Positions 44,629 through 49,313 of a stretch of 64,000 nucleotides of DNA are shown here, one piece after another. The translations under genes and the position numbers were made by a program. Origin of the DNA: Escherichia coli phage phiS. The DNA is taken from sequence record PP449093.1. One strand, given 5' to 3'. The number at the start of each line of letters is the position of its first letter. Positions within the stretch are counted from its first letter, which is position 1. A model generated the notes under the pieces. The model was not told the origin of the DNA and made no database searches. It saw nothing but the letters and a program-made list of their open reading frames with translations.

Positions 44629-45114
44629 ATGAATATTGATGTAAAATTAGAAAGTAAAGATTTGATTTATGCTGCGTGTGTATCTGCCGTAAATGGCATC
44701 ATAGAACGCCGTAAGCGACGAAATTTTGCTGATGACCTAGATTCCATCGTCTCAATCAATTTAGGCCGTCAAACAGGGCATACAGACGCTACAATCAAGC
44801 TATATGACCATTATACGCGAAAAGGATATAGTGTCTTTATCGTTTCAACGACGCGGGAACATGCCAAAACGATCCGAGATCGCGGTCGCGGTGAAAATGT
44901 AAATATTTCAAATGTAGATTGTACGTCGATCCGAACTTTCCTGAATCCGATCACATGGCGAGGGCGTAGTCTTGACAAAACAATTTTTATCCTAGATACT
45001 ACCATGCGCGGATTTACTGACAGCGTATTGCAGTTTTTAGAAGTAAATCGACTTAGTGTTGGGATGGGTAATGTAGAAGACCAACCTATTTTCATTGGCT
45101 TAGGTATCAACTAA
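44629..45114 (+). CDS. hypothetical protein (161 aa)
   Basis: ORF with SD upstream; no recognisable motif. Confidence 0.55.
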   Translation: MNIDVKLESKDLIYAACVSAVNGIIERRKRRNFADDLDSIVSINLGRQTGHTDATIKLYDHYTRKGYSVFIVSTTREHAKTIRDRGRGENVNISNVDCTSIRTFLNPITWRGRSLDKTIFILDTTMRGFTDSVLQFLEVNRLSVGMGNVEDQPIFIGLGIN

Positions 45115-45239
45115 TGAAAAATAAAGATAGCGTAGCTCGTCGATTCCGTGCTACAATCAATAAGAATCGTAAAGTCCAACCTGATAAACTCTATGGTGTT
45201 TTGGTTGGTAAAATTAATGACGAACGTCCTGATCTATAA
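45114..45239 (+). CDS. small basic hypothetical protein (41 aa)
   Basis: TAATG overlap with previous stop; below ORF-track cutoff. Confidence 0.3.
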   Translation: MKNKDSVARRFRATINKNRKVQPDKLYGVLVGKINDERPDL

Positions 45240-45249
45240 GAGGTGAATT

Positions 45250-45666
45250 ATGGAATTTAAAGCAATTCAAATCATGAAAGGTGAGCATAAAGGTACTATT
45301 ATTGGTGGACACTTCGCGCCTATGATTCTGGTATCCGAACCGAAAGCACTGATCGGCGCTAAAGTAATTGTTAGTAAAACTTTCGCAGAAGACCATGTGA
45401 TCACCGCAGAAGACGTCGATTCTCTGGCACTGCACACAACTAGCTTCCGTCCTGTTTATATCGAAGATAGTATTGGTATGAAGCGAGGATCTCAACATCT
45501 CAACGTCAATGTAATGAATCGCGACCTTCTTCTGGATGCGGTAGAGAATCCGGATAAATATCCATCACTAACTGTACGAATTTCAGGCTATGCGGTCAGA
45601 TTTAATGCACTTACGCCGGAACAACAACGAGATATCATTACCCGAACCTTCACGGAAGCAATGTAA
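45250..45666 (+). CDS. grcA: autonomous glycyl radical cofactor (GrcA/YfiD-like)
   Basis: C-terminus GSQHLNVNVMNRDLLLDAVENPDKYPSLTVRISGYAVRFNALTPEQQRDIITRTFTEAM carries the glycyl radical motif RxSGYAVRF and closely resembles recalled E. coli GrcA. Confidence 0.85.
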   Translation: MEFKAIQIMKGEHKGTIIGGHFAPMILVSEPKALIGAKVIVSKTFAEDHVITAEDVDSLALHTTSFRPVYIEDSIGMKRGSQHLNVNVMNRDLLLDAVENPDKYPSLTVRISGYAVRFNALTPEQQRDIITRTFTEAM

Positions 45667-45672
45667 TTTTTT

Positions 45673-45705
45673 AAGCCAATCCTAAAGGGTTGGCTTTTTC
45701 TTTTT
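45673..45705 (+). terminator. Rho-independent terminator after grcA
   Basis: Hairpin AGCCAATCCTAAAGGGTTGGCT followed by TTTTTCTTTTT. Confidence 0.6.
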
Positions 45706-45749
45706 ATTGTGATATGATGACAAAACTTAACAACATGGAGATTGACATT

Positions 45750-46277
45750 ATGATTAAAAGATATTGTGACGACCATCCGGTGGAAGAGTGGAAAGTGATT
45801 GAGGATCTTTATCCGTTAACTCATTTTGAGATTAGCTCTCATGGTCGAGTTAGAAATTCTATTACCGGAAAATATTTGTCTATTGTTGAAACGAAAGATT
45901 ATACTAAAGTTTCTTTTAAGCATCGTCCTAGTAAAACGCATAAAACTTTAAACATGCATAGGATGATGGCTGTTGCGTTTATTCCTAATCCTAATAATTA
46001 TCGTGTAGTTAACCATAAGGATGGAAACAAGAGAAATTTTGACCTGTACAATCTTGAATGGACTACAGACACGCGAAATCTTGCTCATGCAAAGGAAGAA
46101 GGGTTAAACAAAAATTGGGGAGAGAACCACGGAAACGCAAAACTAACAGATAAGCAAGTGAAAGAGATTTTAGCTTCTCCACATATGAAAGGTGTAGAGC
46201 TTGCAAGAAAATATAATGTTACCCCTGCCACAATTAGCCGTGTCCGAAATGGTAAAGTCCGTAACGTCAAATACTAA
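45750..46277 (+). CDS. HNH homing endonuclease (NUMOD4-type N-terminus, C-terminal HTH)
   Basis: NUMOD4-like EEWKVIEDLYPLTHFEISSHGRVRN; HNH-like VNHKDGNKRNFDLYNLEWTT; C-terminal HTH ARKYNVTPATISRVRNG. Confidence 0.7.
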   Translation: MIKRYCDDHPVEEWKVIEDLYPLTHFEISSHGRVRNSITGKYLSIVETKDYTKVSFKHRPSKTHKTLNMHRMMAVAFIPNPNNYRVVNHKDGNKRNFDLYNLEWTTDTRNLAHAKEEGLNKNWGENHGNAKLTDKQVKEILASPHMKGVELARKYNVTPATISRVRNGKVRNVKY

Positions 46278-46290
46278 TGAGGGTTTAATT

Positions 46291-46989
46291 ATGCATACAA
46301 TGGTTAAAATGGTTTTCGGATCTCACTTATACGGCCTTGATACTGAAAATTCCGATAAAGATTATCGTGGTATCTTTGTTCCGACTGCGAAAGAAATTAT
46401 CTTAGGATCGATGAAAGAACACTATGACCAAAGCACTAGCGGTCAAGGTATCAAGAACACCAAAGACGATATTGATGTTAATATGTTCAGTCTAAAACGG
46501 TTTATCAATCTGGCATGTAAAGGCGATATCGGCGCTATTGACATGGTGCACGCTCCTAGTAACATGTTGATCGAATCCTCCAGAGAATGGGAATACATCC
46601 GAACACATCGAGATAAATTCTATCATGTTGGTATGTGGGGTTTGTCTGGCTATCTCAAAAAGCAGGTAGCCAAATCTGAAAAGTATTTCAGTAACTGGAA
46701 AGATCTTTCTCATGCTCTGCGTGTTGGTTATCAGCTACTTGAAATCTATCAAACTGGTGATCTACAATTCCCGCTCGCGCGACGTTCTTCTATTTTAGCG
46801 TGTAAGTTAGGAGAAAGAACCTTTGATAATGTGCGGGAAGAATTGAAAGATCTCTACGAGCGTGTTAAACTCGCGCGTGAAGAGGCAAAGAAAAACGGTA
46901 TGCCGGAAGAACCAGATATTGACTTTTGGAAAGATCTATTAGAATATATTCATCTGACAGTTGTTCTGGAACACTATACCCGTGGTTAG
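46291..46989 (+). CDS. predicted nucleotidyltransferase (Pol beta superfamily fold)
   Basis: N-terminal VFGSHLYGLDTENSDKDYRGIF fits the G[SG]-x(9-13)-DxD NTase signature; helical C-terminal domain. Confidence 0.5.
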   Translation: MHTMVKMVFGSHLYGLDTENSDKDYRGIFVPTAKEIILGSMKEHYDQSTSGQGIKNTKDDIDVNMFSLKRFINLACKGDIGAIDMVHAPSNMLIESSREWEYIRTHRDKFYHVGMWGLSGYLKKQVAKSEKYFSNWKDLSHALRVGYQLLEIYQTGDLQFPLARRSSILACKLGERTFDNVREELKDLYERVKLAREEAKKNGMPEEPDIDFWKDLLEYIHLTVVLEHYTRG

Positions 46990-47010
46990 TTAATATAGGA
47001 GATTAAGAAA

Positions 47011-47205
47011 ATGCAAGTTTATACCAATAGCAATAAAGGACAAGATATTACGCCCGGAAAGATGTATGATTTTACCCCGGCACGAGACGACGAAAATCCA
47101 CCGACAATCGGGTATATTGAAGATGATGCGGGGTTTCGTATTACAATACTTCTTAAGGATGGATGTTTTCATCTTCGCGGTGATCGTTGGGAGTTAGTAC
47201 CATGA
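47011..47205 (+). CDS. hypothetical protein, tandem paralog family member 1
   Basis: 64-aa ORF; shares Y-x-TP...GYI-DD-G...I-I-LK-C-HL-GR-W-LV pattern with the next two ORFs. Confidence 0.5.
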   Translation: MQVYTNSNKGQDITPGKMYDFTPARDDENPPTIGYIEDDAGFRITILLKDGCFHLRGDRWELVP

Positions 47206-47447
47206 TGTATGTGATGACACCTTATAGTAACCGCAAGTATATTACACCTAATACACTGTATGAATATACACCACATGAAAGATTTTCGAATAGTGGTTAT
47301 ATCCGTGATGATAAGGGACACCAGATTTTTATTTGTCTTAAAAATTGTGCACACTTAGACGGTCGAACCTGGACACTGGTCGAAGAACCAAAACAACATG
47401 AGAATAAAGGTCTTTGGAATGTGCTAAAAAAATTCTTGAAAAAGTAG
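47202..47447 (+). CDS. hypothetical protein, tandem paralog family member 2
   Basis: ATGA overlap start; same family pattern. Confidence 0.5.
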   Translation: MMYVMTPYSNRKYITPNTLYEYTPHERFSNSGYIRDDKGHQIFICLKNCAHLDGRTWTLVEEPKQHENKGLWNVLKKFLKK

Positions 47448-47478
47448 TTGACAGCATGAAACGGGGGGGTAGTAATAT
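47448..47478 (+). promoter_or_regulatory. early promoter cassette copy 6
   Basis: TTGACA ... GGGGGGGTAGTAATATACCCCC palindrome; leader ATCGAAACAAAGGAGTATTAAA ATG. Confidence 0.55.
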
Positions 47479-47506
47479 ACCCCCATCGAAACAAAGGAGT
47501 ATTAAA

Positions 47507-47842
47507 ATGAGTGTTAAAGAAGTGTTTGTTTATACCGACTATGACGGGTGCGCCTATCTCACTGCTGGAAAACTTTACCGTTGTGAGATTATTCATGGTA
47601 CGCTAGGTCGAATTATGTGCGATCCGATTACAAAATTGTGGAAAAATAATCCTAGTGAGCGAGAAACTCTTATTAACCTAGATCCAGACGGTTGTTCACA
47701 TTTGGACTATAGAAAATGGCATATAGTTACACATGATGCTTATGGTATTCATCTTGCTACTAAAGAATTAACTATTGACAAGTTCAAGTTTAAAGAAATC
47801 CCGTTTGTATACTGGCTTCGCAATTTGTTTAAGAAAGGATAA
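47507..47842 (+). CDS. hypothetical protein, tandem paralog family member 3
   Basis: ORF trimmed to ATG after cassette SD (MSVKEVFVYTDYDGCAYLTAGKLY...); same family pattern. Confidence 0.55.
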   Translation: MSVKEVFVYTDYDGCAYLTAGKLYRCEIIHGTLGRIMCDPITKLWKNNPSERETLINLDPDGCSHLDYRKWHIVTHDAYGIHLATKELTIDKFKFKEIPFVYWLRNLFKKG

Positions 47843-47846
47843 TAAA

Positions 47847-48269
47847 ATGGAAACAATTAACGTACATGTTCGCCGTAGTAAGCTGCGTAGATTCTTCGAA
47901 ACCGAAATGCGCAAAACCAATGCGCAGATCAAAGAAAAGTGCTTGAATGATGGTTACGGTGAGTATATTTTCATTCGCTTTAGTCCGCATATGATCGACC
48001 GTCTAACCGATCGTCATATCGATGAACATAAGACAATGGAACTATTCAATAAGATAGAAACTCGTTTGCCGGAGATCTTCGACTTCCTGAAAATGGAAGA
48101 CCGTCCGAATCGATTAGAAATTACTGACGGTAACATGTGGATCGGGATGACAGTAGATCTAATCGAAGACGGCAAGCCATATCACGGTCTATGCTGCCGA
48201 ATGATTATAGAGAATCCAAAACGACTGGCGGGTAAAATGTCGGCGGTTGTTTTGAAGGTAGACCAATAA
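47847..48269 (+). CDS. hypothetical protein (140 aa)
   Basis: ORF trimmed to METINVHV after SD AAGGA. Confidence 0.5.
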   Translation: METINVHVRRSKLRRFFETEMRKTNAQIKEKCLNDGYGEYIFIRFSPHMIDRLTDRHIDEHKTMELFNKIETRLPEIFDFLKMEDRPNRLEITDGNMWIGMTVDLIEDGKPYHGLCCRMIIENPKRLAGKMSAVVLKVDQ

Positions 48270-48292
48270 TGGAAATTGGTTAAAAATAATGC

Positions 48293-48319
48293 TTGACTTT
48301 CTGGTGATAGGGCTATATT
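48293..48319 (+). promoter_or_regulatory. sigma70-like promoter (TTGACT-15-TATATT)
   Basis: Upstream of the secreted transglycosylase gene. Confidence 0.35.
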
Positions 48320-48355
48320 ATGGAATCAGAAAGTTAAGCCAAACAGGAGAAATTA

Positions 48356-48946
48356 ATGTTAAAAGTTCTAAAAGCGATAGTATTGAGTCTGTCACTAGCC
48401 GTTGGTGCTACACACGCATCGACTAGCGCACCGATCAAAAAAGCGCCGATAGACAACTTTACAGCACACCAACTAGATAATTTACATTTCGCCTATCAAT
48501 ACGGCGAGCAATTCGAGAAAAGCGGTAAGTTGAAAAAGTACCATCCGAATATTCGCTATAACGGAAAGGGTTTAGGTCACATCCTGGCGGGTATCGCATG
48601 GCAAGAATCAAGCGCGGGTGCAAACTTAGCACCAAAGAAAAATCATCATGCTTATGGATTATTTCAAAATTACCTTAAAACGGTGAAAGCGAAAAATGCA
48701 AAGCGCGGTGTTAAAATGAGTGATCGCCAGACTATCAACTTTATCATGAATCGCGAGGTTTCTGCATTCTACGCGATGGATGAGTTAGCATACTGGCTGG
48801 ATGTTCGAAACGGTAATATCCGACTCGCGCTAGCTTCTTACAATGCAGGGTGGAACTATAAAGCCGGGTTAGGTTATGCTGATGACGTACTAAAAAAGGC
48901 TAACCATCTAAAGAGTAAAGGCATTCTTAAGACTAAACGCTATTGA
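48356..48946 (+). CDS. secreted lytic transglycosylase (SLT domain) with signal peptide
   Basis: N-terminal signal peptide MLKVLKAIVLSLSLAVGATHA; SLT-like motifs AWQESSAG, AYGLFQ and SYNAGW. Confidence 0.6.
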   Translation: MLKVLKAIVLSLSLAVGATHASTSAPIKKAPIDNFTAHQLDNLHFAYQYGEQFEKSGKLKKYHPNIRYNGKGLGHILAGIAWQESSAGANLAPKKNHHAYGLFQNYLKTVKAKNAKRGVKMSDRQTINFIMNREVSAFYAMDELAYWLDVRNGNIRLALASYNAGWNYKAGLGYADDVLKKANHLKSKGILKTKRY

Positions 48947-48953
48947 GGAATAT

Positions 48954-49313
48954 ATGAAAAAGTTGACAATAATTGCTATGATTGCTATGATGTTCTCGGC
49001 TGGTGCGCTTGCTAGTAATGAGCGCCCTTATCCAAAGTTTGAATACAAAGGATTTGAGATCAACAAAAAGATCATTAAAACTTTCTGTGATGATGATAAC
49101 ATGTGTAGTGATTTTATCGCGCTCGAACTTGATGAAGCATACAAACAAGGTAGAGACGAAAAACGAAAAAATCGAGCATGGGATCTGAGTATTGCCAGCT
49201 TTGCTAAAACAAAACGCAACCTGTGTGATACTGCCCCTGATAAGCAATTATGCTTTGCTTATCGCGACACACTGTTAAGCCGTTTTATGGCTGGGTTGTC
49301 GTCCCGTGACTAA
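48954..49313 (+). CDS. secreted/periplasmic Cys-containing protein (119 aa)
   Basis: Signal peptide MKKLTIIAMIAMMFSAGALA; 4 Cys in the mature part. Confidence 0.5.
   Translation: MKKLTIIAMIAMMFSAGALASNERPYPKFEYKGFEINKKIIKTFCDDDNMCSDFIALELDEAYKQGRDEKRKNRAWDLSIASFAKTKRNLCDTAPDKQLCFAYRDTLLSRFMAGLSSRD

Follow-up and report, generated by a model that had tools for sequence, protein, structure and literature searches.

Three adjacent genes encoding a small, predicted SH3-like domain between nrdC.11 and regB in Escherichia coli phage phiS and its Krischvirus relatives

The 64,000 nucleotides (nt) of Escherichia coli phage phiS analyzed here (sequence record PP449093.1; this whole stretch is referred to as the window) contain, between nrdC.11 and regB, three small adjacent genes, designated A1, A2 and A3 (Table 1), whose products belong to a single protein family. 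Each gene encodes one copy of a conserved, foldable and acidic barrel domain. A1 and A2 overlap, A3 is preceded by a conserved promoter and stem-loop cassette, and the genes evolve under purifying but relaxed selection and have undergone recombinational exchange. An earlier note on this DNA had described the three open reading frames (ORFs) as tandem paralogs diversified in an arms race, and all three ORFs are present at the positions it gave. The locus is interpreted here as part of a hyperplastic region of the Krischvirus genome in which three non-essential accessory genes, putatively early, each encode one SH3-like domain of about 60 residues that would act as a protein-binding module, a reading for which the chances appear evenly balanced; most of the doubt concerns the function. 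Over 46900-47950, the window shares 96-97% identity with 58 genomes of Krischvirus, a group of T4-type coliphages that includes RB49, Phi1, JSE, GEC-3S and their relatives. The corresponding Phi1 genes, ORF097, ORF096 and ORF095, also lie between nrdC.11 and regB and are labeled hypothetical proteins, a label that A1 carries in the 58 Krischvirus records. T4-type hyperplastic regions are full of unnamed small early genes, among which three adjacent copies of one foldable domain offer a concrete target for functional screens.

Membership in one family was supported by pairwise as well as profile comparisons. A1 and A2 are 43% identical over 63 residues (E 2.5e-13; Smith-Waterman z 21.8), and none of 2000 shuffles scored as well; the same held for A1 and A3 (z 5.6), and A2 and A3 aligned with a z of 3.7, a score reached by 11 of the 2000 shuffles. 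PHROG 6261 is matched over its full length by A1 (1e-26) and A3 (1e-37) and also matches A2 (1.6e-6), and PHROG 15978 matches A2 at 7e-57. In addition, a hidden Markov model (HMM) built solely from 127 domains of relatives outside Krischvirus was run on the 961 six-frame ORF fragments of the window and recovered the three ORFs at E values of 2.5e-26, 1.7e-20 (A1) and 8.4e-16 (A3), the next-best fragment having a value of 0.9. Although the pairwise similarity of A3 is marginal, these profile matches settle its membership, and the three ORFs therefore constitute one real family. The earlier note had named alignments no better than shuffled controls as the result that would speak against it, and no pair gave that result. 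Chance similarity between unrelated or non-coding ORFs, for which the weak A2-A3 pair is the one point in favor, retains practically no probability: it is refuted by the shuffles, above all those of A1 and A2, by the independent HMM, which gives each of the three an E value of 1e-15 or better and has no other match in the window, and by the ratio of non-synonymous to synonymous substitution rates (dN/dS), which is well below 1 for ORFs conserved in about 20 genomes; the confident AlphaFold model of the domain also argues against it. Motif and profile searches found no fourth copy in the 64,000 nt, nor any further copy elsewhere in the Krischvirus genomes, where family members occupy two or three places per record.

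The family domain is about 60 residues long and usually acidic (median isoelectric point, pI, 4.7; median net charge -5), with the consensus mkVkTdy.gc.YiTaGK.Yev...g.I.dD.G..i.Ill.gCaHLdg..Wevve. Among 94 sequences, one Tyr and one Trp are invariant, and a Lys and a Cys are conserved in at least 90%. Four motifs, Y.TAGK.Y, DD.G, C.HL and W.[IL]V, are all found in A1 and A2, whereas A3 lacks DD.G and keeps the other three. The ordered motif that had been attributed to all three genes consequently needs some correction: its full form (GYI-x-DD-x-G, I-x-I-x-LK) occurs in A1 and A2, and A3 retains only Y.T...Y.TAGK.Y and C-x-HL...W-x-[IL]V, with an insertion between them. AlphaFold modeled the domain as an SH3-like five-strand barrel with a predicted local distance difference test score (pLDDT) of 88 and a short 3-10 turn before the last strand, of which about 50 residues superpose at 2.1-2.7 Å on many SH3 domains; the model of A3 was poor (pLDDT 62.8). 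As modeled, the five-strand barrel would resemble the SH3-like small beta-barrel fold, which comprises eukaryotic SH3, Tudor, KOW and integrase C-terminal domains, a likeness drawn from the predicted structure. A Foldseek search of the domain model against the PDB gave nothing significant. No Pfam model, SH3 models included, matched A1-A3 or ten longer, fused relatives at E <0.1, and in the latter the scan showed no informative partner domain. Nor did NCBIfam and PADLOC yield a meaningful match for A1-A3, as MGP3_C and the FosA fragments scored far below the cut-offs, and a literature search on the family and locus-tag names found nothing. Two candidates were discarded. A PDB profile match to a beta-propeller blade of dipeptidyl-peptidase-4 (E 0.035), the only PDB sequence match, was considered spurious, and the conserved Cys-x-His as a shared zinc site at a dimer interface was rejected, as clear family members carry Tyr or Phe instead of His and Ser instead of Cys.

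A profile search of 1.84 billion cluster representatives retrieved 131 clusters (50% identity) at E 1e-3 or better, spanning myoviruses, T1-like phages and temperate phages. Most are single-domain proteins of 58-70 residues; a few combine two or three domains within a single chain (P0024, P0025, P0045, P0114 and P0138), and other members have unrelated C-terminal extensions. Distant multi-domain relatives match both PHROG 6261 and PHROG 15978, which are catalogued separately with the function "unknown" and are joined here as one domain family with an SH3-like fold and three copies in Krischvirus. By tblastn with the family consensus, copies were located in 144 isolate phage genomes of unrelated groups, including Krischvirus, Vibrio myoviruses, T1-like phages of Escherichia and Klebsiella, Pectobacterium phages and Pseudomonas KIL phages, and every copy was labeled hypothetical. 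In contigs of temperate type, the neighbors of the gene are small early genes along with Cro/CI-like regulators, an ERF recombinase or replication genes. The family is widespread in phages of Gammaproteobacteria. What is new is the description of a catalogued but uncharacterized family, whereas the type of shuffling hotspot in which it sits was already known.

The description of the locus as three tandem paralogs holds for A1 and A2, which are clear paralogs, and has to be qualified for A3. Local duplication would make the copies each other's closest relatives, which is only partly the case for A1 and A2 and not the case for A3. The latter shares 35% identity (E 2e-10) with distant family members and is thereby nearer to them than to A1 or A2 (E about 1e-3), suggesting that it is not a recent tandem copy but a separate lineage of old standing or a cassette acquired independently. 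The A1/A2 split also appears to be old, since A1-like proteins (P0016, P0018, P0019 and P0022) and A2-like proteins (P0020 and P0021) each have their own set of orthologs diverged by more than 50%. A distant T4-like contig, L032 (Logan SRR8048117), encodes RlaP, RegB and Vs.1 proteins 45%, 49% and 63% identical, respectively, to those of the window. Its slot contains, in order, RlaP, one A1-like gene (61% identical, overlapping the RlaP stop as TAATG), a G5/C5 stem-loop, RegB and Vs.1, and a divergent second family member lies directly upstream of RlaP (E 2e-10 against 6 sequences); the two family genes are at 607-843 and 1854-2048 of the contig. The RlaP of this contig has 335 residues, compared with 232 in Krischvirus. 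The gene order suggests that a single copy between RlaP and RegB was probably the ancestral T4-like arrangement. The Krischvirus locus would then combine an old A1/A2 duplication with a third, more distant A3 lineage behind its own promoter cassette, a history that the comparisons partly show.

In some haplotypes, A1 and A2 share an exact 20-nt patch (CGGTTACATCAAAGATGATA) at the homologous GYIKDD codons, and one metagenomic scaffold (L031 45-296; European Nucleotide Archive, ENA, ERZ16268176 scaffold_28569) encodes a candidate fusion protein of 83 residues, whose N-terminal half comes from A1 and whose C-terminal half comes from A2, with the join exactly at this patch. The sequence 5' of the fusion differs from the 3' end of nrdC.11.

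The sequence between A2 and A3 confirms the earlier proposal that A3 has its own promoter cassette. A -35 box, TTGACA (47448-47453), follows an AT-rich stretch, and a stem-loop, GGGGGUA/UACCCCC (47465-47484), overlaps the -10 box, TAATAT (47473-47478); the Shine-Dalgarno sequence and the start of A3 come next. By its sequence, the cassette is of the promoter-early stem-loop (PeSL) type, a class with the stem-loop over the -10 box described in PMC2839356. For other PeSLs of Phi1 and RB49, promoter as well as terminator/attenuator activity was shown and a modular shuffling of ORFans was proposed (Arbiol et al. 2010, PMC2839356), and mutations are reported to be selected on cloning because of the strength of the native promoters (Arbiol et al., PMC2839356). 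The PeSL-flanked ORFan cassettes in the hyperplastic regions of RB49 and Phi1 (PMC2839356; Comeau et al. 2014, PMC4122927) belong to the same genus and have the same layout: an AT-rich region, TTGACA-17-TAATAT, a G/C stem-loop over the -10 box, a Shine-Dalgarno sequence and an ATG. Neither PMC2839356 nor PMC4122927 mentions ORF095-097, regB or paralogy. The predicted folding energy of the stem-loop is -15.3 to -15.8 kcal/mol with z -2.2 to -2.9 (window: -15.8, z -2.7). Over 22 loci (the window and 21 related ones), the -35 box, the stem-loop with the -10 box and the leader are invariant, whereas the 5' part of the spacer varies, which points to functional constraint on the PeSL. The spacer measures 19 nt in the window, owing to a run of seven G (47463-47469), versus 17 nt with five G in 21 of 21 related loci. 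A consensus promoter scan missed the cassette of the window because of the 19-nt spacer, and the longer run reflects either an error in sequencing a homopolymer or a variant with a weakened promoter. A 99-residue antisense ORF on the minus strand across the A2/PeSL/A3 junction (47297-47596) was considered spurious, as it has no homolog or profile match and its conservation is accounted for by the genes on the plus strand. Rfam gave no credible RNA family for 45000-49000.

The arrangement of the genes also suggests how they may be expressed. The stop codon of A1 (TGA, 47203-47205) overlaps the start codon of A2 (ATG, 47202-47204) as ATGA, and this overlap, on which the earlier note had based a translational coupling, is kept in the complete Krischvirus loci examined. 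The gap between nrdC.11 and A1 is 21 nt and contains no promoter, and regB starts 4 nt 3' of A3, so that two early units can be proposed, nrdC.11-A1-A2 and PeSL-A3-regB. Presumably, nrdC.11 is co-transcribed with A1 and A2 as one early transcript in which A1 and A2 would be translationally coupled through the ATGA, and regB is co-transcribed from the PeSL promoter. The PeSL, combining a stem-loop with a sigma-70 early promoter, would attenuate the nrdC.11-A1-A2 transcript and restart transcription for A3 and regB. A GGAG Shine-Dalgarno sequence lies 7-9 nt before each ATG (46998-47001 for A1, 47190-47193 for A2 and 47496-47499 for A3). GGAG is the motif cut by RegB in T4. The sites of all three genes could likewise be cut by RegB, and translation would then probably be shut off after the early period.

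Exchange at this locus is most evident in A3. An alternative allele (P0002-P0004; 102-103 residues) occurs in metagenomic contigs of Krischvirus, some of them from the Hadza gut, and a tblastn search against GenBank isolate phages gave no match, so that it is known only from metagenomes. Its domain is about 40% identical to that of the A3 of the window, and its last 20 residues are identical. The DNA identity between the window and the loci with this allele is 95-100% up to the PeSL, falls to 22-42% at about 47560-47760 and returns to 97-100% at about 47800. This drop flanked by near-identity indicates that the A3 domain was exchanged, with crossovers at the PeSL and inside the tail-coding sequence. 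An exchange starting at the PeSL is predicted by the modular-shuffling model. Unlike in that model, only the upstream crossover lies in the PeSL, the downstream one being within the coding sequence, in the conserved tail; and unlike in the exchange of ORFans, the swapped segments are not unrelated but homologous (40% amino acid identity). The swap represents a clean natural example of a PeSL-anchored module exchange, in which a variable domain, putatively a binding domain, is replaced and a constant tail is kept. A further protein, P0005 (ENA contig, 111 residues), begins with residues 1-28 of A3, continues as MraZ-like (PF02381) sequence and is most likely a chimeric metagenome assembly.

The selection acting on the locus was estimated from five genes taken from about 20 Krischvirus loci (isolates and metagenomic contigs), as pooled ratios of non-synonymous to synonymous differences per site (pN/pS, Nei-Gojobori). 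In the search for loci, A2 as query found two, and a metagenome scan for RegB found only three. The pooled ratios of A1-A3 (Table 1) are all below 1 and above those of nrdC.11 and regB, as would be expected of proteins that are constrained, less so than their enzyme neighbors, and under relaxed or diversified, not positive, selection. The A1 ratio is 0.39 in loops versus 0.10 in strands, and all structural partitions are at or below 0.39. Neither the pooled ratios nor those of partitions and windows of codons gave dN/dS above 1, except at codons 21-30 of A1, ten codons whose value comes from very few changes. A2 occurs as two deep haplotypes, ...NTLYEY..HERFANSGYIRDDKGHQIFICLKNCAHLDGRT... and ...NKLYKF..DERMSTYGYIKDDKGYKLFISLKSCAYLDDRP..., with a synonymous divergence (dS) of up to 1.6 versus at most 0.24 in nrdC.11, whereas the main A3 allele is near-invariant in 17 isolates (dN 0.011). 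Phage FL04 (PP358550), which was propagated on K-12, has a 14-nt deletion that truncates its A1 (L022 1187-1381), indicating that A1 is dispensable there.

These values bear on the possibility of a true arms-race locus, in which A1-A3 would be anti-defense or host-takeover inhibitors under diversifying selection and their paralogs and alleles would track variant host targets. The dN/dS values are 3-6 times those of the flanking genes, A2 is deeply dimorphic, the A3 allele has been replaced, the variation of A1 is concentrated in loops and one loop window (codons 21-30) is above 1, all of which would be in accordance with such a role. However, the ratios are well below 1 in all partitions, the main A3 allele hardly varies, and Pfam, NCBIfam and PADLOC gave no match to a characterized inhibitor or defense-related family. 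In addition, recombination of dispensable genes driven by PeSLs accounts for the mosaicism without selection (PMC2839356). The variability of A1-A3 is also in keeping with the modular shuffling by PeSLs that is known for non-essential genes of RB49-like hyperplastic regions (PMC2839356). An arms race is thus considered rather unlikely. Of the diversification put forward in the earlier note, a locus more variable than its neighbors is borne out, by ratios raised over those of the flanking genes, by the A2 haplotypes and by the A3 swap; positive selection was not demonstrated, and the arms-race reading itself found no direct support.

Under the interpretation preferred here, the copies would keep reshuffling, as suggested by the A2 haplotypes, the shared patch of A1 and A2, the candidate fusion and the A3 domain swap. 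The acidic barrel could be a protein-binding module aimed at a host or defense protein, and copies and alleles would differ in target specificity. A2 and A3 might additionally be tethered by their C-terminal cationic amphipathic helices, most likely to the inner membrane in a MinD/FtsA-like manner. The tail helices have a hydrophobic moment of 0.66 and a net charge of +4 in A2 and of 0.59 and +3 in A3, and AlphaFold places helices at residues 66-79 (A2) and 99-109 (A3). In Krischvirus, both tails are under purifying selection that acts at the protein level, with a pN/pS of 0.11 in the A3 tail and of 0.23 in the A2 tail (pS 0.23). The divergent A2-like proteins P0020 and P0021 also keep an amphipathic W..[IL]K.. 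tail. Like the membrane-targeting sequences of MinD and FtsA, A2 and A3 end in a helix of 10-14 residues with a bulky hydrophobic face and a Lys/Arg face, and the hydrophobic moments of their tails (0.59-0.66) compare with 0.45-0.57 computed for MinD and FtsA peptides. These sequences are not homologous to the tails of A2 and A3, and nucleic acid or the groove of a protein would be just as possible a ligand for a helix that is basic and amphipathic.

Several points weigh against this interpretation. The tails resemble the membrane-targeting helices of MinD and FtsA, a likeness backed solely by the hydrophobic-moment calculation and to be used as a lead only, and the library scans gave no homolog of known function that would point to a binding partner or to membrane association. 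The AT-rich upstream element of the PeSL is overlapped by codons of the A2 tail, and in JSE this tail is frameshifted by one extra A in an A7 run, giving 89 residues versus 81. Early timing is read from promoter type and position, RegB cleavage at the GGAG sites of A1-A3 is extrapolated from T4, and the A1/A2 fusion, seen in one metagenomic scaffold, may have arisen naturally by unequal crossing over or artificially, through misassembly at the 20-mer that both genes share. In the JSE gene (L018 1392-1661), the last residues of the amphipathic tail are replaced and the frame reads through the -35 box of the PeSL.

The main rival explanation is a role in RNA metabolism, in which the barrels would be RNA-binding or adaptor subunits of RlaP, acting in RNA 3'-end repair, and/or of RegB, with RNA contacted by the basic tails. 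Damaged RNA 3' ends are the substrate of RlaP (bioRxiv 10.64898/2025.12.29.696909), and the position of the Krischvirus genes between RlaP and RegB, with their putative co-transcription, would be consistent with such a partnership, as would the single copy overlapping the RlaP stop in L032 and the second, divergent member just upstream of RlaP in that contig. Furthermore, the SH3-like/Sm/KOW fold class includes many RNA binders, and the structure comparison lists Spt5 KOW and L24. However, the core of the domain is acidic (pI 4.6 for A1, close to the family median), which is unfavorable for nucleic-acid binding, and most family members are found in phages where neither RlaP nor RegB is close by. 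At six other T4-like loci that encode RlaP, the family is absent within 2.5 kb, indicating that the linkage with RlaP is lineage-specific, and T4 itself has RegB and NrdC.11 but no detectable member of the family. A function with RlaP and RegB is accordingly regarded as unlikely.

The T4 comparison extends to vs.3, vs.4, vs.5 and every ORF in T4 57-68 kb, none of which belongs to the family (HMM E >0.1 for vs.3, vs.4 and vs.5). Like A1-A3, vs.3, vs.4 and vs.5 are small early genes in the syntenic slot between regB and vs.6; they differ from A1-A3 in having unrelated sequences, which read as helix-forming rather than as beta-barrels. The slot next to regB is filled by non-homologous genes in different genera.

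A broader proposal is that the acidic barrel of about 60 residues represents a new and widespread class of phage early effector domain, for example an inhibitor or decoy of a conserved host or defense protein, which in T4-type phages would have been recruited beside RlaP and RegB and expanded to three specificities, two of them membrane-anchored by an amphipathic tail, and with A1 and A2 as a stoichiometric pair. We regard this proposal as a long shot. The findings as a whole leave current understanding unchanged unless a target is found.

Table 1. Genes and elements of the locus in the window, with the evidence for each and the pooled pN/pS of the five genes compared
Feature	Position	Strand	Description and evidence	Pooled pN/pS
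nrdC.11, RlaP-family nucleotidyltransferase	46291-46989	+	Pfam RlaP 3e-14; annotation of relatives	0.045
A1 (Phi1 ORF097 / RB49p097)	47011-47205	+	64 residues, SH3-like domain alone, pI 4.6; ORF, PHROG 6261 and distant-family HMM	0.27
A2 (Phi1 ORF096)	47202-47447	+	81 residues; SH3-like domain at residues 1-62 (47202-47387), linker, C-terminal helix	0.28
A2 C-terminal cationic amphipathic helix KGLWNVLKKFLKK	47406-47444	+	Hydrophobic moment, charge	
PeSL-type cassette	47448-47499	+	Sequence, RNA folding, conservation in 22 loci	
A3 (Phi1 ORF095)	47507-47842	+	111 residues; divergent SH3-like domain with insertion at residues 1-76 (47507-47734), linker, tail	0.125 (main allele)
A3 C-terminal tail KFKFKEIPFVYWLRNLFKKG, including amphipathic helix	47780-47839	+	Hydrophobic moment, charge	
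regB, GGAG-specific endoribonuclease	47847-48269	+	Pfam REGB_T4 1.5e-48; annotation of relatives	0.044

Some features were also observed upstream of the locus. In the program-made list of ORFs, nrdC.11 begins with a TTG (46201) that lies inside an HNH gene, whereas the ATG at 46291, after GAGGG, is the conserved start of all annotated relatives. The HNH gene is a free-standing HNH/NUMOD4 homing-endonuclease gene at 45690-46277, between the vs.6 terminator and nrdC.11. It is missing from Phi1, RB49, G2494, KMB43, kvi and others, and the same or another HNH gene occupies the site in JSE, MIZ5, FL04, JK32 and the Hadza contigs. Farther upstream, the product of vs.6 (45250-45666) is an autonomous glycyl-radical cofactor of the GrcA/YfiD-like kind that bears RISGYAVRF as its C-terminal motif, and a clean intrinsic terminator (45673-45696) follows the gene.

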